Source: Bacteroidales bacterium (GTDB taxonomy: Bacteria; Bacteroidota; Bacteroidia; Bacteroidales; JBGRPZ01). Taken from it: a DNA stretch of 64,000 nt. The translations under genes were made by a program, and so were the position numbers. Where the stretch lies: the NCBI GenBank assembly GCA_041725955.1, contig JBGRQE010000010.1, forward strand, positions 2,376 through 66,375, read 5' to 3'. Positions 42,132-63,683 of the stretch are shown one piece after another. Position 1 is the stretch's first letter; each line of letters begins with the position of its first letter. The notes under the pieces were generated by a model. The model saw nothing but the letters and a program-made list of their open reading frames with translations, did not search any database and was not told the DNA's origin.

Positions 42132-45100
42132 TTATTTTCCTTGCAACATTTCCCAATAGTTATAAAGACCGTCGTTTAGACGTTTTTCTTTTTCTTCAGG
42201 ACTTAATTTCAACCAGCGTTCACGAGCTTCTTCATGTTTTCTGCGTTCTGCAGCTTCCTTAGCTTCTATTTTCTCATTGAATTCATCTTCAATTTTTCGC
42301 TTAAGGAATCCTTTTGCAACAGCAGGGAACAACTCAAGGAGTAGTTTTTCCTTTTCGTTTTTAGCAAGATGAGCACCACCAAACTCTTCAAAAACAGGAT
42401 TTTCTTGTTCTTTATAGTTTGAGGTATCATACTCACGCTCGTCGCTATGACCGCAGATCAATTCACGGAATTTAGGGTCGATATCTATAGGTGTTTTTCC
42501 ATAGTAACCTTTTACCAAGTTTATAAACTGAGAGGTTTTATTTGAATAGGCTGGTCGGCCATTTTCTAAATCAACTACACAGTTTACCGCTTGTGCACCC
42601 ACTATCTGAGAAGAAGGGGTTACCAATGGAGGGCAACCTGCAGCAACACGAACCTCTGGCACCATTTGAAGTACTCTTCCAAGAAGATGATCGAGTTGTA
42701 ATTGCTTAAGCTGTGCCAACATATTGGTATACATACCACCTGGAATTTCTGCAGCTTTTACTTCTTCATTACCCATAGGGAAATTGAAGTACTTTTCGAT
42801 TTGACTGGTAACATCCAAAAGTTCGTGTTCTTTATCGGCTTTTGCTAATTGAATAGCTCTGTCGAATAGGGCATCAATATCTTTTGGAAGATCTTCCCAT
42901 GTAATATCAAACTCACGAGGGAACATTTTATAACTGTCAAATTCGGCAATATCTTCACGAATTTGGTGAAGCTCTTTGTTGATTTTTACTACTGCATCAA
43001 GATTTACTCCTGTATCCAAACCAAGTTTGTCGGCAAAGATTTGAATAATCTCGAATGAAGGAGCAGCAGCACCACCCGCAAAGTTCATTATATTGGTATC
43101 TACGATATCTACACCATTTATTATAGCCATAATTACAGAGGCTAATCCGTAACCAGGCGTACAGTGAGTGTGGAAATCAATAGGGATACTTAATTCTTTT
43201 TTGAACATGCGTACCAATTTTCCAGACATGCTTGGTGGAATTAATCCTGCCATATCTTTTATGGAAATCATATCTGCACCCAAGGCTTCCATTTGCTTTG
43301 CTTTATCAAGGAAGTATTCTTCGGTGAAGACTTTTTTTGGTAGGCTACGACCTTTAAAGAAAGCCTTAAGTCTTTGTTTGCGTGTAAACTTAGGGTCTAC
43401 AGTATAGCAAACTGCACAGTCTGCAATACCACCAGCTTTCTTTATATATTTGATGGTCGACTTCATATTGTCAACATCGTTCAAGCAATCGAATATTCGC
43501 ATAATGCCAATACCAGACTTTACTGCAAGGGTATTAAACCCTTCAATAACATTTTCTGGATAAGGATTGTATCCGAATAAGTTACGTCCACGAGATAGGG
43601 CAGTTAGCTTAGATACATTTCCGATTTCTTTTTTGATGCTTTCCAATCGATACCATGGATCTTCGTTTAAGTAGCGCATTACTGAGTCAGGAACAGCACC
43701 ACCCCAAACTTCCATAGCATAAAAGTTGGCATCTTTATAAAAAGGAAGTACTTTATCTATATCTTTTTGAGGAACACGGGTAGCAAATAAAGACTGTTGA
43801 CCATCACGAAGGGTAAGGTCACGAATCTTTAGTTTACCATTGAACTTCATCTTTGCTCTGGCTGCTTTTTTCTCTGCTTTTTTCTTTTCGATAAGAATAG
43901 CTTTTTCTTCCTTACGCTTATTATGTAGGAATCCTTTTGCAACAGCAGGGAAAAGCTCGAGCAATAGCTCTTCTTTTTCGTCAGAAGCAAGTTTCTTTCC
44001 GTATTCTTCTAATACCGGATTATCTTGTTTTTTATAATTAGCAGTATCATAATCCTGTGCATCGCGGTGTCCACAAATCTTTTCACGGAAATTTGGATCA
44101 ATATCGATAGGTGTTTTTCCATATTCACCTTTTACCAAATTGTGGAATTGGTTGGAAACATTGGTATACCATGGGCGGTCATTTACTTCATCAACCACAC
44201 AGTTTACTGCTTGCGATCCGACAATCTGAGAAGAAGGAGTTACCAATGGAGGGCAACCAGAATCGAGACGTACTTTGGGTACAGCTTCCAATACACGGCT
44301 AAGTAGATGATCCAGACGTAATTGCTTTAGCTGTGCTAGCATATTGGTGTACATTCCGCCAGGAATTTCAGCTCTTTTTACTTCTTCATTAGGAGCCGCA
44401 AAATTGAAGTACTTCTCAATTTCGTGAACTACAACAAGAAGCTCATCTTCTTCTTTTTGATCTTTTAGCGACTTGGCTAATTCAATAGCACGGTCGAACA
44501 TAGCTTCAACCTTCTTTGGAAGATTTCCTTTTCTAACATCAAATTCAATTGGGAACTGCTTAGATGTATCGAATTCGGATAATTCTTCACGGATGGTTTT
44601 TAGTTCTTGATTGATCTTGTAAACAGCATCAAGGTCGACATCTAAATCGTAACCAAGTTTCTTGGCGAAGATGTAGATTAGTTCGAATGCAGGAGCAGCA
44701 GGGCCGCCAGCAAAGTTCATCATATTGGTATCAACAATGTCGACACCATGAACCAATGCAGTTACATATGCAGCAAGACCATATCCTGGAGTACAGTGGG
44801 TGTGAAAATCAATAGGAACTTTTATTTCCTCTTTTAGGCGTTTGATGATTGCTCCTGCACTTAGCGGAGTAACCAAACCTGCCATATCTTTTAAGGAAAT
44901 CATATCTGCCCCTAAAGCTTCCATTTCCTTGGCTTTGTTCAGGAAGTAGTCTACCGTAAAAATAGGCTCAGGTCCTTCACCTTCAGGAAAAACAGGATCC
45001 ACAGTATAACACACTGCACAATCGGCTAGACCACCAGCTTCTTTGATATATTTGATGGTGGATTTCATATTATCGACGTCGTTCAAACAATCGAAAATAC

Positions 45101-45446
45101 GCATGATTCCTATACCCGATTTTACTGCATTAAAATTAAAACCTTTAATAACGCTCTCTGGATAAGGATTGTAGCCGAAAAGGTTACGCCCTCTTGACAA
45201 AGCAGTTAGATATGATATATCCCCTATTTCTTTCTTTATAGATTCGAGACGATACCAGGGATCTTCACCAAGAAAACGCATTACAGAGTCCGGTACAGCT
45301 CCCCCCCAAACTTCCATTGCGTAAAAATTAGCCTTTTTGTATAGTGGCAAAACGCGTTCAACTTGTTCTTGACGCATTCTTGTTGCAAACATAGACTGTT
45401 GACCATCTCGGAGGCTAAGATCTCTGATTAATAATTTCTTTTTCAT
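42132..45446 (-). CDS. Tandem double carboxyltransferase (OadA/PycB-type HMGL-like + PYC_OADA, two copies) without a biotinyl domain
   Basis: RDGQQS.FATR, MEVWGGA, IS.KDMAG, DFHTHCTPGYG, EIPGGMYTN and PPLVTPSSQIVG each occur twice. No AMKM motif anywhere. Confidence 0.9.
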   Translation of the reverse strand: MKKKLLIRDLSLRDGQQSMFATRMRQEQVERVLPLYKKANFYAMEVWGGAVPDSVMRFLGEDPWYRLESIKKEIGDISYLTALSRGRNLFGYNPYPESVIKGFNFNAVKSGIGIMRIFDCLNDVDNMKSTIKYIKEAGGLADCAVCYTVDPVFPEGEGPEPIFTVDYFLNKAKEMEALGADMISLKDMAGLVTPLSAGAIIKRLKEEIKVPIDFHTHCTPGYGLAAYVTALVHGVDIVDTNMMNFAGGPAAPAFELIYIFAKKLGYDLDVDLDAVYKINQELKTIREELSEFDTSKQFPIEFDVRKGNLPKKVEAMFDRAIELAKSLKDQKEEDELLVVVHEIEKYFNFAAPNEEVKRAEIPGGMYTNMLAQLKQLRLDHLLSRVLEAVPKVRLDSGCPPLVTPSSQIVGSQAVNCVVDEVNDRPWYTNVSNQFHNLVKGEYGKTPIDIDPNFREKICGHRDAQDYDTANYKKQDNPVLEEYGKKLASDEKEELLLELFPAVAKGFLHNKRKEEKAILIEKKKAEKKAARAKMKFNGKLKIRDLTLRDGQQSLFATRVPQKDIDKVLPFYKDANFYAMEVWGGAVPDSVMRYLNEDPWYRLESIKKEIGNVSKLTALSRGRNLFGYNPYPENVIEGFNTLAVKSGIGIMRIFDCLNDVDNMKSTIKYIKKAGGIADCAVCYTVDPKFTRKQRLKAFFKGRSLPKKVFTEEYFLDKAKQMEALGADMISIKDMAGLIPPSMSGKLVRMFKKELSIPIDFHTHCTPGYGLASVIMAIINGVDIVDTNIMNFAGGAAAPSFEIIQIFADKLGLDTGVNLDAVVKINKELHQIREDIAEFDSYKMFPREFDITWEDLPKDIDALFDRAIQLAKADKEHELLDVTSQIEKYFNFPMGNEEVKAAEIPGGMYTNMLAQLKQLQLDHLLGRVLQMVPEVRVAAGCPPLVTPSSQIVGAQAVNCVVDLENGRPAYSNKTSQFINLVKGYYGKTPIDIDPKFRELICGHSDEREYDTSNYKEQENPVFEEFGGAHLAKNEKEKLLLELFPAVAKGFLKRKIEDEFNEKIEAKEAAERRKHEEARERWLKLSPEEKEKRLNDGLYNYWEMLQGK

Positions 45447-45961: not shown

Positions 45962-46654
45962 ATGCTTATGAAAAATATAGTAGTGCTTAGTGGAGCAGGA
46001 GTGAGTGCAGAAAGTGGGGTAAAAACTTTTCGAGATTCTGGTGGACTATGGGAAAATCATAGAGTAGAAGATGTTGCAACACCCGAAGCTTGGGAACGTA
46101 ATCCGCAATTGGTAAATGAGTTTTATAATCAAAGACGAAAACAGCTCTTTGATGTTGCTCCCAACAAGGGGCATATAGCTTTGGCACGTCTTGAGAATAA
46201 GTATAAGGTTAATGTGGTTACTCAAAATGTTGACGACTTGCATGAACGTGGAGGAAGTAGTGATGTTTTACATCTTCATGGAGAACTCAAGAAGGTTAGA
46301 AGTACTGGAGATGAAAACTTGGTTTATAAGCTTGATGGATGGGAATTGAAATTGGGAGATTTGTGTGAAAAGGGTTTTCAGTTGCGTCCACATATTGTAT
46401 GGTTCGGCGAGGCAGTGCCAAATATTGTTCCTGCTGCTGATATTTGTTCTAATGCCGATATTATGATCGTCGTAGGAACGAGTTTGAATGTTTATCCTGC
46501 TGCAGGATTGGTTGATTACGCTCCAAAACATTGTAAAATATATCTTGTAGACCCAAATACAGATCTAAAACCCAGATATCGTAATTTGGAAATTATTTAT
46601 AAACTTGCCGGAGAGGGATTACCTGATTTGGTGGATCGTTTGATGGAGGAATAA
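45962..46654 (+). CDS. cobB: NAD-dependent protein deacylase (sirtuin)
   Basis: GAGVSAESG.KTFR, TQNVDDLHERGG, HLHG, RPHIVWFGE, GTSLNVYPAA. Confidence 0.93.
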   Translation: MLMKNIVVLSGAGVSAESGVKTFRDSGGLWENHRVEDVATPEAWERNPQLVNEFYNQRRKQLFDVAPNKGHIALARLENKYKVNVVTQNVDDLHERGGSSDVLHLHGELKKVRSTGDENLVYKLDGWELKLGDLCEKGFQLRPHIVWFGEAVPNIVPAADICSNADIMIVVGTSLNVYPAAGLVDYAPKHCKIYLVDPNTDLKPRYRNLEIIYKLAGEGLPDLVDRLMEE

Positions 46655-46685
46655 ATGATGAATTTCATTTTTATTAATCGTAAAT

Positions 46686-46722
46686 AAAAAAGGTGCTGCT
46701 ATGGATTAACAGCACCTTTTTT
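46686..46722. terminator. Bidirectional terminator between cobB and the 39-aa ORF
   Basis: aaaaaaggtgctg / cagcacctttttt stem with T-tracts on both strands. Confidence 0.8.
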
Positions 46723-46738
46723 ACTTAATAGTGTTTAT

Positions 46739-46858
46739 TTAAAATGTACAAGTAAATGAGGTGTTTGAAGATTTTACTGCACTTGTATTTATCGTATTCA
46801 ATTTGGAAACAGTTTCTCTTTTTAAAGAAATTTTGTTCGAAAAAACTTTTAGTTTCAT
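46739..46858 (-). CDS. 39-aa peptide, putative RiPP (lanthipeptide-like) precursor; not in the ORF track
   Basis: Manual translation MKLKVFSNKISLKRETVSKLNTINTSAVKSSNTSFTCTF*. A-rich translation initiation region, downstream terminator and an upstream TATCTTTG box. Confidence 0.6.
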   Translation of the reverse strand: MKLKVFSNKISLKRETVSKLNTINTSAVKSSNTSFTCTF

Positions 46859-47080
46859 AACATTAGTTTTTTTAGGTTTAAGAAAAAAAGTTTGAATATT
46901 ATGAGTGTCTTTAGAGTAGGCTACTCAAATAAAACTCAGTTGGTTGCCACGATTTTTTATTATTATGGAATCAGATTTTGTTGATTTAGTAATAAGATTT
47001 TCTATTCTTAGAGAATAAGATAAAATCATAATCAATATGCTTATAAAACTACTGCTGAAAGAGGCTTATTTTGTTATTTA

Positions 47081-47088
47081 CAAAGATA
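47081..47088 (-). promoter_or_regulatory. -7 promoter box TATCTTTG, candidate promoter for the 39-aa ORF
   Basis: Consensus match on the minus strand, about 220 nt upstream of ATG 46858. Confidence 0.4.
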
Positions 47089-47241
47089 TTTTATGTTAAA
47101 CGACATAAGTTTCAGATTAACTGACTGTTATGTTTTTTATGTAAATCAAAAAAAAGTTCTCTTTTTTGTTAAAAGAGAACTTTTTAAGTACTACACCTAA
47201 CGAATTTTCAATAGGTTAGGTGTAGAGAAATCAATATGCTT

Positions 47242-48618
47242 TTAGATCTTATCCAATTCAACAGTGAAGTGACGTAAGATTGGAGCTTCTTTGGTAATTT
47301 TTAAACCAGTATTGATCTGACCTCTGCGCTCAAATACATTAGCAAGAGTAGCTGCAATATAATCCATATGGTTGTTGGTATATACTCTTCTTGGAATAGC
47401 TAAACGCAATAACTCTAATTCAGGATAACGGTTTTCGCGAGTTACAGGATCACGGTCAGCAAGGATAGATCCAATTTCAACACCACGAATACCTCCTTCT
47501 AGATAAGCTTCTATTGCTAAGGTTTGTGCAATAAAATGCTCTTTTGGTAGCTGAGGTAAGAAACGCTTAGCATCAACAAAGATAGCATGACCTCCAAATG
47601 GATACTGTACAGGTACACCATACTCTTGAAGCTTTTTACCCAAGTACGCAACTTGCTCGATACGAGTTTCAAGATAATCGAACTCAGTACCTTCGTCAAG
47701 ACCTACAGCCAAAGCATTCATGTCACGACCAGACATACCACCATAAGTAATATATCCTTCGAACATAATATTGTAAACAGTAGCTTTTTGATAGGTTTCT
47801 TCATCACGGAAAGCAATGAAACCACCCATATTTACGATAGCATCCTTTTTAGAACTCATGGTCATGCCATCAGCATAAGAATACATTTCTTTCACAATTT
47901 CTTTGATGGTTTTATCTCCATAGCCATGCTCACGTTTTTTGATGAAGTATGCATTTTCAGCAAAACGAGCAGAATCAAAGATAACTCTAACGCCATATTT
48001 CTTAGCAATCTCGCTTACACCGCGGATGTTTTCCATAGATACAGGCTGGCCACCAGAAGTATTACATGTTACAGTAACGATGATACAAGGAACTTTCTCG
48101 ATAGGAGTGTTCTTAAGTGTATCTTCTAGTTTTTCAAGGTTAAGATTACCTTTAAATGGGTGATCGATAGTAGTATCGAAAGCCTCATCGATGGTAACAT
48201 CAACAGCAGAAGCTTTTCTGAACTCGATATGACCTTTGGTAGTGTCAAAGTGAGAGTTACCAGGAACAACATCTCCTTCATTGATCAATACGCTGAAAAG
48301 TACGTTCTCAGCAGCACGACCTTGGTGAGTAGGTAGGAAATAATCAAATCCTAGAATCTCTTTGATCGCATTTTTCATGTTGTAGAAAGACCTTGCTCCA
48401 GCATAGCTTTCGTCACCTGTCATCATAGCAGCCCATTGGCGGTCGCTCATTGCACCAGTACCAGAATCGGTTAAAAGGTCAATAAGAACTTGTTCGCTTT
48501 TTAGGTTGAATAGGTTATACTTAGCTTCTTTAATCCACTGAATACGTTCTTCTTTAGTACTTTTACGAATGGGTTCAACCATCTTGATTTTGTACGCTTC
48601 TACAAAAGGTAATTCCAT
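47242..48618 (-). CDS. tnaA: Tryptophanase
   Basis: DLLTDSGT, THQGR, MSSKKD (PLP Lys). HFDTT, GVEIG and LRHFT are tryptophanase-type residues, versus FTTT, MERG and LRFFT in tyrosine phenol-lyase. Confidence 0.93.
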   Translation of the reverse strand: MELPFVEAYKIKMVEPIRKSTKEERIQWIKEAKYNLFNLKSEQVLIDLLTDSGTGAMSDRQWAAMMTGDESYAGARSFYNMKNAIKEILGFDYFLPTHQGRAAENVLFSVLINEGDVVPGNSHFDTTKGHIEFRKASAVDVTIDEAFDTTIDHPFKGNLNLEKLEDTLKNTPIEKVPCIIVTVTCNTSGGQPVSMENIRGVSEIAKKYGVRVIFDSARFAENAYFIKKREHGYGDKTIKEIVKEMYSYADGMTMSSKKDAIVNMGGFIAFRDEETYQKATVYNIMFEGYITYGGMSGRDMNALAVGLDEGTEFDYLETRIEQVAYLGKKLQEYGVPVQYPFGGHAIFVDAKRFLPQLPKEHFIAQTLAIEAYLEGGIRGVEIGSILADRDPVTRENRYPELELLRLAIPRRVYTNNHMDYIAATLANVFERRGQINTGLKITKEAPILRHFTVELDKI

Positions 48619-59901: not shown

Positions 59902-60084
59902 ATGAAAAAGCAAAACTCTATTACAAGGTCTCAAAACATTTCTGAAAGATTAAAGCAGTTAAAACGAAATTATAAAAAACCAGAGTTGGTGGAATTTAAT
60001 TTGCAGAATGCCCTGCAAGATCAATGTTCTGATATGGCTTCCTGCTGGAAAGAAGAAGAGAAAAAGACTATGATTTGGTTTTAG
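59902..60084 (+). CDS. Putative RiPP precursor peptide (60 aa)
   Basis: Located 3 nt upstream of an rSAM gene. Y24-K-K-P27-E-L29 matches YxxPxL. C-terminal QCSDMASCWKEEEKKTMIWF. Confidence 0.8.
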   Translation: MKKQNSITRSQNISERLKQLKRNYKKPELVEFNLQNALQDQCSDMASCWKEEEKKTMIWF

Positions 60085-60087
60085 ACA

Positions 60088-61539
60088 ATGAAATCAAGGC
60101 AAGCATTTAATTTAGAATTCGATATAGTAGGGCATTGTAATTTACAATGCTCTTACTGTTATTTGAATATGGGAGAGGAACAAGATTTGGATGAATCTAG
60201 TTTCTTGACTGAAGAGCGTTTTGATACTTTTTACAATACCTTTTTTAAAGATGTTGATCAGGAAGTAGATCTGAATGTTTCATTTTGGGGTGGAGAGCCT
60301 TTAATGAATTTCCCAATCATTGAATATATTGTTCATCGGTTAAAGGTCTCTTCAAAGGTAAATCGAACCGTATTTGTTATAATAACTAATGGAACATTAG
60401 TTACTCCCGATATTGCGAAGTTTTGTGCAAGGCATGGAGTGTTTTTGCAAGTAACTCTTGATGGAGACAGAAAAAGTCATGATATTCAGCGGAGAACTAA
60501 AAACGATAAGGGGACCTTTGATGCGATTCTTAAGAATATTGAAATTTTAAAGGAATACAAAGCCCCTTATTCTTTAAAAACTACTTTAACAGCGTTGACT
60601 CCATTACCGTCTAAAATTATTGAAGAATATGAGGCCTTAGGATTGACTCCAATAATTCAAGAAAATATGCGAGGAACATTACATCCCGGTTATGGATTTA
60701 ATTTGGTTACTCCTGTTTCTGATTTTGATAAAAGAATCTTGGAGTCCTTTAATCCAGAACTTCTTGCCGAGGATCTGTTTAATTGTTTTTTAGAGGATTC
60801 ACATTCAGATAAGCTGTATTATCACAGTAATATTTATAGTGTAATACAATTGTTTTTTTCTTCTTATCCACGGTCTTCTTGTGGAATAGGTGACAGATAT
60901 CTCACTATTAAATACGATGGGAGTATTTATCCCTGTCATCGCTTTGTTAGTAAAAAAGAATTTGTTATTGGAGATATAAAACATGGTGTTAAGTATCCTT
61001 TTGAAAAGAAAAAGAATGTTGAATGTGAAAAATGCGATTACTTTTTTTTCTGTGGAGGAACTTGTCAGCATAAAATGGCTCTATTTGGGAATGATTATAT
61101 AGATCATAAAAATTGTAGCTTTAATATTCGATTACTGGAGTTGGTTTTTGATTATTTAATCAAAGAGTTCTTTGAAAATCAAGAGTTGTTTCTTGAAAGA
61201 TATGAGAGCTTAATTCCTAGTGATAAAAAGTTTAATCTATGTCAGATTACCAAATCTACAGAATCAGATTTAGATCCTCTTTGTAAGTTAGAAATAAATA
61301 AATTGGCATCTGTATTGCAATTAGAATCAGGTGGTATTATTTATTTAAAGCAGAAGAAGTGGAATAAACATATTTTGAATCAAACAGCTATATTGATTTG
61401 GGATATGATTCCAGTTTATAAAACCCCTCAGCGAATAGCTCAAGAAATATCTCAATCGTGCGATTTGCTTTATAGTGATGTTTTTAAGGATGTCTCTTGT
61501 CAATTAAATAGTTTTAAGGAATCTGGTTTTCTGAATTAA
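60088..61539 (+). CDS. Radical SAM/SPASM peptide maturase with a C-terminal PqqD/RRE-like domain
   Basis: C17-x3-C21-x2-C24, WGGEPLMN, TLDG. SPASM: SCGIG...GSIYPC...CEKCDYFFFCGGTC...KNC (7 Cys). C-terminal LNQTAILIWDMI...IAQEIS...DV..QLNSFKESGFL. Confidence 0.9.
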   Translation: MKSRQAFNLEFDIVGHCNLQCSYCYLNMGEEQDLDESSFLTEERFDTFYNTFFKDVDQEVDLNVSFWGGEPLMNFPIIEYIVHRLKVSSKVNRTVFVIITNGTLVTPDIAKFCARHGVFLQVTLDGDRKSHDIQRRTKNDKGTFDAILKNIEILKEYKAPYSLKTTLTALTPLPSKIIEEYEALGLTPIIQENMRGTLHPGYGFNLVTPVSDFDKRILESFNPELLAEDLFNCFLEDSHSDKLYYHSNIYSVIQLFFSSYPRSSCGIGDRYLTIKYDGSIYPCHRFVSKKEFVIGDIKHGVKYPFEKKKNVECEKCDYFFFCGGTCQHKMALFGNDYIDHKNCSFNIRLLELVFDYLIKEFFENQELFLERYESLIPSDKKFNLCQITKSTESDLDPLCKLEINKLASVLQLESGGIIYLKQKKWNKHILNQTAILIWDMIPVYKTPQRIAQEISQSCDLLYSDVFKDVSCQLNSFKESGFLN

Positions 61540-61824
61540 GTGTTTATAGAAATGGGAATAGAAAAAGTTAAATTATGTCGTCTATCTTCTGTCAAGATGG
61601 TTGAGTTGGATGATGAAATTATCTTGAGTCATCAGGAAAAGAATTATGTGTTAAACGCATCAGGAGTGGAAATATGGGAAATGCTTAAACAGCCCATAAC
61701 AACAAAGGAGATTATAGAAAGAGTTGCTGAAACTTATAATGTTCAATTATCTTTAATTGAGAGTGATGTCATTGAACTTTTGGAAAGTTTTGTAATTAAA
61801 GGATTAATTGAAAAGCAAGCATGA
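61540..61824 (+). CDS. PqqD family RiPP recognition element (stand-alone)
   Basis: VELDDEIIL...YVLNASGVEIWEML...IIERVAETYNV...DVIELLESFVIKGLI. Confidence 0.9.
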   Translation: MFIEMGIEKVKLCRLSSVKMVELDDEIILSHQEKNYVLNASGVEIWEMLKQPITTKEIIERVAETYNVQLSLIESDVIELLESFVIKGLIEKQA

Positions 61825-62657
61825 CTATATGTAGTTATTATTCAATTTGTGGAACACCAATTAAGTTGCAAAGTCCATTACAAGAAATTAATACTTTTTG
61901 CGATTTTATGCTGTATGCTTTTAAAGAAGAAAATTTATCTGAAAGTGAGTGTACCCTTGTTTCTGTAGAAAGAAATTTATATTACTCAGACTATTATGAC
62001 ATTTATAAAAACGGTCAAATAGCTTTTGATTTTGGAATGAAGATGAAGGGAGTACATTATTCTGTTATGTCAAAAGCATTGGAAAATATAGTGTCAGGAC
62101 ATGCAATTAACCAAATAGATAAAAAGGAATTAATCTCCTTGCATTCTGGTGCAATATCTAAAAATAATAAGGGTATATTAATTCTTGGAGAAAGTGGAGA
62201 TGGAAAATCTACTTTCACTCTTGAAATGGTAGCTCAGCATAACTATGAGTATTTGTCTGATGAGATTGGTTTACTTGACAAGGAGTTATTTTTACATCCT
62301 TTTATAAAAACAGTTTCTTTTAAACCAGGTATTGTAAAGTTGAATGATTCATGGATTTGTAAACGGTTTGCAAATGAGTTTCAGGTAAAAGTACCAGAAA
62401 AATTATACGGACAAAAAGTTCCTTTGAAAGCTATATTTACTGTTAAATATAATCCGGATAATCAGACCTCAATTCAACCAATGCAAAAAAAAGACATGTT
62501 AAAACGCTTGTTTAATGCACAAATAGGACGGGAAAGATATATTGCTGAGGTAGGCCAAATTGCAGATATTGTTAAAAGAGTGCCTGTTTATAGGATTGAA
62601 CATAATTCAGCTTCAGAAGCAGCTAAAGCAGTCGACAATCTTTTGTTTGGAATTTAA
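61821..62657 (+). CDS. HPr kinase-like P-loop kinase
   Basis: LHSGAI...GILILGESGDGKST...YLSDE. 4-nt ATGA overlap with pqqD. Confidence 0.8.
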   Translation: MTICSYYSICGTPIKLQSPLQEINTFCDFMLYAFKEENLSESECTLVSVERNLYYSDYYDIYKNGQIAFDFGMKMKGVHYSVMSKALENIVSGHAINQIDKKELISLHSGAISKNNKGILILGESGDGKSTFTLEMVAQHNYEYLSDEIGLLDKELFLHPFIKTVSFKPGIVKLNDSWICKRFANEFQVKVPEKLYGQKVPLKAIFTVKYNPDNQTSIQPMQKKDMLKRLFNAQIGRERYIAEVGQIADIVKRVPVYRIEHNSASEAAKAVDNLLFGI

Positions 62658-62738
62658 TAATTAAGTGGTTTAAAATTATATTAACTTAATTCCTTGTTGT
62701 TTAGGAATGAAGGATTGCATATTTAAGTAAAATTAAAA

Positions 62739-63683
62739 TTGCTTTATATGCAAGTTGAAGATTTTTTATCCTTTCAATTATTTTATTCTGAATTTTTAAG
62801 ATCTCCTTTAACTTTCTCCAAAATTTTGTTTACCGACGGGAGTATTAAGTATATGCCCTTTGTGAAAAGATTGGATGCTTACATAAGTTTGCCTTTTGTT
62901 TCATATACTGGTGTTTTAGATCGGGTTTCAAATCGTTTTTTACGAGGGCCAGATTTCGTTGAACAAAACGGAAACTTAATTTGTGAAGACCCAAAGATTA
63001 TATGGGAAATTAGAGGGTTTCGCTCTTATTCTAATCATATTTTAGATGCAAAGGTTTTGCAGGTCATTAATCTAAAGAAAAATAAAGAATGTAAAAGTTT
63101 CCAAATTGGGCAACATACAAAACGAAAAATTAAGAAAGCTCAGCAAAAACAGCAATATGTTTATATGTTGAATAATGGGCGATGTGATGTTTTTATTGAT
63201 TTGTATCAGCGGTTTTGTCTAAAAAAGGGAATACCATCTTTTTCAAGAAACTTCTTTCAGTTATTAATTGATTTTTTTCCGTCGAGAGTATCCATTTTTA
63301 TAGTTGAAAAAAATGGAGAGCCTATTGCTTCCGCGTGGCTTTTTAAGGATAAGCGTTATGCTGAGGTTACTTGGATTTGTGGTGTGGACGGATATAAAAC
63401 CCATTATTCTCATTTCTTACTGATTTATGAGATTATGCAATATTGCAAAAATGAATCTATTGATTTTCTTTCTTTAGGTCGGAGTGATTATAATAGTGGA
63501 ATTTATGGGTTTAAGAATTTGTGGAAAACTGTAAATATTCCTTTAATATTTAGTTATTCGAAACCTTGTGTTAACGTATGGAATTTAAAAGAATCTTGTT
63601 CATGGGTTATGAAGAATACAGCAAAAGTTTCGCCAACTTTGACTTTAAAAATGGGAGATTTTATTACAAAAAAAGTTTTCTAA
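62739..63683 (+). CDS. FemAB-like GNAT-fold transferase (resembles the PEP-CTERM/EPS-associated FemAB type)
   Basis: ISLPFVSYTG, EIRG, RNFFQLL, HFLLIYEIMQYC, LSLGRS..NSGIYGFKNLW. Confidence 0.72.
   Translation: MLYMQVEDFLSFQLFYSEFLRSPLTFSKILFTDGSIKYMPFVKRLDAYISLPFVSYTGVLDRVSNRFLRGPDFVEQNGNLICEDPKIIWEIRGFRSYSNHILDAKVLQVINLKKNKECKSFQIGQHTKRKIKKAQQKQQYVYMLNNGRCDVFIDLYQRFCLKKGIPSFSRNFFQLLIDFFPSRVSIFIVEKNGEPIASAWLFKDKRYAEVTWICGVDGYKTHYSHFLLIYEIMQYCKNESIDFLSLGRSDYNSGIYGFKNLWKTVNIPLIFSYSKPCVNVWNLKESCSWVMKNTAKVSPTLTLKMGDFITKKVF

Follow-up and report, generated by a model that had tools for sequence, protein, structure and literature searches.

A 39-codon ORF resembling the dispersed class I lanthipeptide precursors of a Bacteroidota genome

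In the 64,000-nt stretch of DNA analysed in this study (hereafter the window), a 39-codon ORF between a sirtuin gene and a lyase gene genuinely belongs, on sequence grounds, to the class I lanthipeptide precursor (LanA) family dispersed through its genome, as a paralogue specific to this species. We tentatively favour the view that it is a truncated or decaying copy, a by-product of rapid birth-and-death turnover among these genes (probability about 0.48). A working short-core precursor modified in trans is about equally likely, and the evidence thus leaves both halves of the alternative put forward in the preliminary description of this DNA, namely, an orphan precursor modified in trans or a degenerate relic.

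The small ORF and its surroundings

As claimed in the preliminary description, the minus strand contains an ATG-initiated ORF of 39 codons plus stop, and its peptide, MKLKVFSNKISLKRETVSKLNTINTSAVKSSNTSFTCTF, is identical to the one quoted there (Table 1). The ATG is the first start in an open frame of 61 codons, with none in-frame farther upstream. The reported count of nine Ser/Thr and one Cys in the C-terminal 18 residues was correct. This composition is rare, as only 16 of the 8383 ATG-initiated ORFs of 30–60 aa in the genome carry at least nine Ser/Thr in the last 18 residues (top 0.2 %). The A-rich initiation region described earlier is also present: the stretch CCTAAAAAAAC (46866–46876), located upstream of the ATG, resembles the equivalent region of the paralogues, and the block (C/T)CTAAAAAA(A)C within the initiation region is common to the ORF and the paralogues.

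Two claims on expression signals stood in part. The hairpin reported directly downstream is real, starting 12 nt past the stop codon with A and U tracts on both flanks, but it is shared with the convergent sirtuin gene and is not specific to the ORF. Likewise, the −7 box assigned to the ORF, TATCTTTG, is present at 47088–47081, but the match is no better than chance, with 0.31 matches expected per 400 nt, and such a box is absent within 400 nt in 12 of 15 paralogues. The terminator of the upstream lyase gene argues that the small ORF is not merely readthrough from that gene. An Rfam search of positions 46500–47400 gave nothing over threshold, only sub-threshold terminator look-alikes, and a Pfam search gave noise alone. 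We rejected the presence of a hidden frameshifted core downstream, since the other frames lack a Cys-rich continuation and the terminator follows immediately.

Two other loci in the window were noted. Positions 59902–63683 (plus strand) hold a radical-SAM/SPASM peptide-modification operon with a 60-aa precursor of its own; the leader of this precursor is unrelated, and the small ORF was rejected as a substrate of the operon. At 42132–45446 (minus strand), an ORF of 1104 aa is made up of two homologous halves in tandem, carboxyltransferase-like by eye, each opening with ...(L/K)IRDL(S/T)LRDGQQS..., and looks like an internal duplication fused in one frame.

Table 1. Features of the small ORF, its neighbourhood and the lanthipeptide enzymes (positions in the window unless a contig is named)
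Feature	Position	Strand	Evidence or remark
39-codon ORF, LanA-family paralogue (by sequence)	46739–46858	−	Stop codon 46739–46741; six-frame NF038153 match, 20.5 bits, E = 0.003
Leader, residues 1–31, MKLKVFSNKISLKRETVSKLNTINTSAVKSS	46766–46858	−	Gap-free alignment with G106 and G271 LanAs next to the enzymes; paralogue comparison
8-residue tail, NTSFTCTF	46742–46765	−	Beyond leader end; four Ser/Thr and the sole Cys (Cys37)
A-rich translation-initiation region, CCTAAAAAAACTAATGTT	46859–46876	−	Form common to C6, C8 and C52 paralogues
Two-way intrinsic terminator hairpin	46681–46727		−26.5 kcal/mol, z = −9.7; serves ORF and convergent sirtuin gene
Sir2-family sirtuin gene, convergent with ORF	45962–46654	+	Stop at 46654
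Beta-eliminating lyase gene, upstream, same strand as ORF	47242–48618	−	
Terminator of beta-eliminating lyase gene	47151–47185	−	
Candidate Bacteroidota −7 box	47081–47088	−	230 nt upstream of ATG; weak, not above chance
LanC, 415 aa	contig C97		LANC_like, 132 bits; WCYG and CHG zinc-ligand motifs visible
LanB N-terminal part, 746 aa	contig C97		Lant_dehydr_N, 494 bits
LanB C-terminal part, 305 aa	contig C97		Lant_dehydr_C, 237 bits

Leader match and relatives of the ORF

Based on an NCBIfam search, the peptide matched a single model, NF038153 (lant_leader_L1a, 'class I lanthipeptide'), at 21.6 bits (E = 1.7e-4), missing the curated cut-off (22) by 0.4 bits. Residues 1–22 aligned with model positions 1–23 of 32, and the match began at the first ATG. 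Among the 18 matches given by a six-frame genome search, the ORF ranked third. The score was calibrated on 401 genomes of the same order, in which E-values proved well calibrated: outside the genus, approximately two clear false positives were found at 19.4 bits or above, both within long frames, and small-frame matches at about 20.3–21.5 bits in three genomes (G375, G106 and G240) lay 2–5 kb from LanC/LanB and are therefore real precursors. When the first 21 residues were compared in register with seven paralogues, 11 of 21 were identical and the BLOSUM62 sum was 53, compared with maxima of 37–43 over the N-termini of three random genomes matched in dinucleotide composition. By blastn, homology between the ORF and the paralogue genes on contigs C52, C8 and C6 spanned approximately −44 to +62 relative to the ATG.

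Starting at Met1, the ORF also gave a gap-free alignment with precursors that lie beside the enzymes in G106 (MKKKRFNKKLILKREVISKLDLRKVKGG...) and G271 (MKKVKFNKKLSLNKEAITKLNEANLINIKGG...). In this alignment, VKSS coincides exactly with IKGG/VKGG, the position at which the preliminary description had placed it, and the leader is therefore residues 1–31, with NTSFTCTF alone remaining. The leader motif, I10-S-L12-K-R14-E-T-V-S-K-L20, reads IxLxRx5L as compared with LxLxKx5L; two positions differ, both conservatively. One C52 paralogue likewise has Ile at the start of the motif, and the enzyme-adjacent LanA of G106 reads LILKREVISKL. The earlier proposal of a Bacteroidota class I lanthipeptide-type leader is supported by the model score, at just under the cut-off, and by the in-register alignment, and the searches suggested at that time, with leader models, for paralogues and for lanB and lanC elsewhere in the genome, each returned matches.

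We consider it extremely improbable that the ORF is a chance frame in an AT-rich intergenic region resembling a Lys-rich leader. Such a reading would fit the score just below the curated cut-off and the behaviour of two narrow profiles, one built from the group-B paralogues described below (11.4 bits) and one from peptides of the sister species G001 (<7 bits), neither of which separated the ORF from random sequence. These narrow profiles are overfitted, and the ORF is picked out both by the broad curated model and in the anchored comparison. Against a chance origin stand the genome-wide E-value, given that the calibration holds, the match from model position 1 at the first ATG of the frame, the BLOSUM62 sum above those of all three random genomes, the extension of DNA homology into the upstream region and the register with enzyme-adjacent LanAs held through position 31.

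The ORF itself was then compared more widely, with negative results. No orthologue was found beside the sirtuin gene of G001, in which a universal-stress-type gene follows 73 nt after the sirtuin gene. In the 401 genomes, no full-length homologue was detected, with noise at E ≥ 0.015. An exhaustive search of 1.84 billion representative proteins returned just two low-complexity Ser/Thr proteins, a word-index search with the peptide gave no homologue, and exact-sequence look-ups of the peptide and the sirtuin gave nothing. Comparison of the intergenic DNA with 40 relatives yielded no real match. Metagenome loci fetched by the sirtuin gene were at most 68 % identical, and none contained a leader-type ORF downstream.

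The genome (3.8 Mb, 33 % G+C, 113 contigs, 92.6 % complete; the ORF lies on contig C10) contains at least 20 small ORFs of the same leader type. Contig C46 holds a tandem array with KGG leaders and long Cys-rich cores, the fourth copy being broken by the contig end. Group B comprises seven genes on C6, C8 and C52, encoding peptides of 58–65 aa with K-S/T-G at the leader end and 3–6 conserved Cys in the core; from translations read by eye, we take their neighbours to be the housekeeping genes HtpG, AsnA and Era. Singletons are found on C1, C4, C7, C13, C17, C18, C20, C23, C25 and C43. On C46 (19180–27738), we also recognized by eye genes for a TolC-like protein, a TetR-like regulator, a membrane-fusion protein and an RND pump of 1143 aa. 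Three KGG-leader precursor genes stand in tandem after them, and the assembly breaks within this array; the gene set is a possible export module.

The closest full-length relative of the ORF is the 41-aa peptide MKTLNNKIPLKKEKVRQINKSNAIKELISPKKRSCTVVSGC encoded on C20 (18247–18369, plus strand; locus L158), with 35 % identity over 37 ungapped residues and one Cys aligned. This gene has its own downstream hairpin, and its orthologue in G001 encodes 46 aa (C39:34485–34625, minus strand; locus L159). The core pattern RSCTxxSGC is conserved between the two (RSCTVVSGC and RSCTTGSGC), indicating that very short cores can be maintained by selection in the genus, and the C20-type peptides appear, as judged from this pair, to form a conserved class with very short cores. 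In G001, which belongs to the same genus, the six-frame search gave 97 leader matches, approximately 70 of them over the cut-off, arranged in many tandem arrays (for example, on C41, C55, C71, C107 and C117). All of the well-scoring G001 precursors that we extracted had a core of about 20 aa or longer.

Modification enzymes and dispersed precursors

The genome contains a single intact set of split LanB and LanC, on C97 (Table 1). In agreement with the preliminary description, no LanB, LanC or LanM was detected in the window, and matches in the genome were confined to C97. A second LANC_like match was not found in the genome, which is thus without LanM. Directly upstream of LanC (C97:4811–6244, minus strand) lies a 477-aa ORF, by eye a hybrid sensor kinase/response regulator, which could regulate the lanthipeptide enzymes. 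A search for Peptidase_C39 in the 92.6 %-complete genome gave no match, yet four of its precursors carry KGG leader ends. A C39 gene may be located in the ~7 % that the assembly lacks; otherwise, a different protease would act on these leaders.

Among the 401 genomes, 26 had NF038153 matches over the cut-off, 37 had LanB and 24 had both. LanB was therefore present in 24 of the 26 leader-positive genomes, compared with 13 of the other 375 (odds ratio 334, Fisher p = 4.5e-27). The LanB of these 37 genomes was mostly a split dehydratase, with N-terminal frames of approximately 730–760 aa. This count contrasts with the report that screened Bacteroidales genomes were without LanB (PMC10352776), if the order of the 401 genomes is Bacteroidales. 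A LanB search of contigs from other genomes gave one locus, in Arcicella gelida, with 38 % identity and no precursor within 7 kb.

Outside the genus, genomes contained 1–5 precursors, usually on the LanB contig and a few kb away from LanB. Within the genus, none of the 18 model matches in this genome, and none of the 97 in G001, which has two LanB contigs, was located on a LanB contig. These observations suggest that modification in trans would be the rule in this genus, in keeping with the first of the two alternatives in the preliminary description.

By the mechanism of the family, residues 1–31 of the ORF peptide would dock on the LanB N-terminal protein of C97. LanB would then glutamylate Ser/Thr via Glu-tRNA-Glu, and a separate elimination protein would remove the glutamate. 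LanC would join Cys37 to a dehydro residue close by; from Thr33 or Ser34, the ring would be of nisin A or nisin B size. The leader would then be removed by some protease.

Status of the copy and comparison with known systems

The preferred reading, a decaying copy, is consistent with the length of the ORF, which is the shortest member of the family, with 8 residues after the leader, compared with 20–55 in other members, and a single Cys. It also agrees with the negative searches for an orthologue next to the G001 sirtuin gene and for full-length homologues, with the lack of a significant promoter and with the presence in G001 of clearly truncated relics of the family, such as a 28-aa leader-only ORF. 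A decaying copy may still be translated, probably without yielding a mature ring peptide. Several features argue against decay, however. The leader equals or beats those of the intact paralogues, as seen from its rank among the model matches. The codons at the leader end are TCT-TCA in the ORF and GGN-GGN in the family, and a leader this good is not expected after long neutral decay, because the change from GG to SS needs at least four base changes. The loss of GG is itself not abnormal, as the seven conserved group-B paralogues end in K-S/T-G and no C39 peptidase was found. The Ser/Thr content of the tail is as would be expected of a dehydratase substrate, and a second short member, that on C20, has been kept with a conserved core in the sister species. 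These same features lend substance to a functional short-core orphan precursor, which we regard as a serious possibility. In this case, the peptide would be translated, the split LanB of C97 would dehydrate some of the nine Ser/Thr, LanC would close one small ring on Cys37, for example from Thr33 or Ser34, and a non-C39 protease would remove the leader, yielding a very small, mostly linear dehydrated peptide. The start codon, leader and A-rich initiation region are all intact, the tail is Ser/Thr-rich with one Cys, the enzymes are present in the genome, leader and LanB are strongly associated across the order and every precursor in the genus is encoded apart from LanB. Leaders lacking GG are normal in this genome, and the C20 peptide, with its short core, has been conserved in G001. 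A functional precursor is disfavoured by the same shortness and single Cys, which make the ORF an outlier of the family, and by the lack of a significant promoter and of any orthologue or homologue of its own.

The good conservation of the leader and the near absence of a core would also suit a leader-only peptide that competes for, or titrates, the leader-binding site of LanB or an exporter and modulates the approximately 20 other precursors, given that one enzyme set serves many precursors. We give this reading little credence: nothing in the sequence demands a secondary role, the Ser/Thr-rich tail would be unexplained and, to our knowledge, there is no precedent for such a peptide. Taken alone, the ORF adds a further copy, probably a marginal one and atypically short, to a precursor family already known. 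Its value is as a marker of the genus-wide dispersal and multiplication of precursors away from LanB. Should the short copies be substrates, they would indicate the smallest size that LanB/LanC can process and would point to a leader protease independent of Gly-Gly.

Class I clusters of Bacteroidetes encode an LxLxKx5L leader, frequently with a Gly-Gly end, and an associated C39 protease (Walker et al. 2020, PMC7268733). The ORF resembles the Bacteroidota class I LanA (NF038153; PMC7268733) in leader length, motif and spacing from Met1, in the Lys located three residues before the core (−3) and in the Ser/Thr/Cys of its C-terminus, with LanB and LanC present in the genome. Unlike many NF038153 LanAs, it has Ser-Ser in place of Gly-Gly (or Gly-Ala/Ser), in a genome in which no C39 peptidase was found, and unlike the usual LanA cluster, it is not beside the enzymes and has only 8 residues with one Cys past the leader. 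The Gly-Gly end and enzyme adjacency, both missing here, are common but not universal features of the family.

Pinensin of Chitinophaga pinensis (PinA, split PinB1/PinB2, PinC), likewise from a Bacteroidota class I system, is produced with a two-gene dehydratase, as on C97, and is a small product with a 22-aa core and two methyllanthionine rings (PMC9680876, PMC10112250, PMC10125368). Here the likeness ends: PinA is encoded in the cluster, the cores are dissimilar and the single Cys of the ORF allows one ring at most. Compared with the group-B and C20 paralogues of its own genome, the ORF shares the leader spacing and the orphan placement among housekeeping genes, with 11/21 identity to the C6 and C8 members, but it has neither the conserved 3–6-Cys cores of group B nor the RSCTxxSGC core and G001 orthologue of the C20 type.

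The layout in the genus, with about 20 precursors in this genome and 97 matches in G001, compared with 1–5 beside LanB elsewhere, looks like a class I analogue of the prochlorosins. It is rather unlikely that the ORF is a working member of a class I equivalent of that strategy, based on split LanB/LanC. If it were, one or two enzyme sets would mature from 20 to approximately 100 dispersed precursors, and the ORF would supply an unusually small product, either a core of 8 residues or a heavily dehydrated 18-residue peptide closed by a single ring at the C-terminus; its leader would be removed by a non-C39 protease, because the leader ends in Ser-Ser and no C39 peptidase was seen. Some prochlorosin cores are poor substrates or lack Cys (prochlorosins are mentioned in PMC7268733). 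As in the prochlorosin system (ProcA/ProcM, class II; PMC7268733), a single enzyme set is accompanied by many scattered precursors with a conserved leader and hypervariable cores; unlike that system, which uses a Nif11-type leader and the single-protein LanM, the present one combines a class I split LanB and LanC with an LxLxK-type leader.
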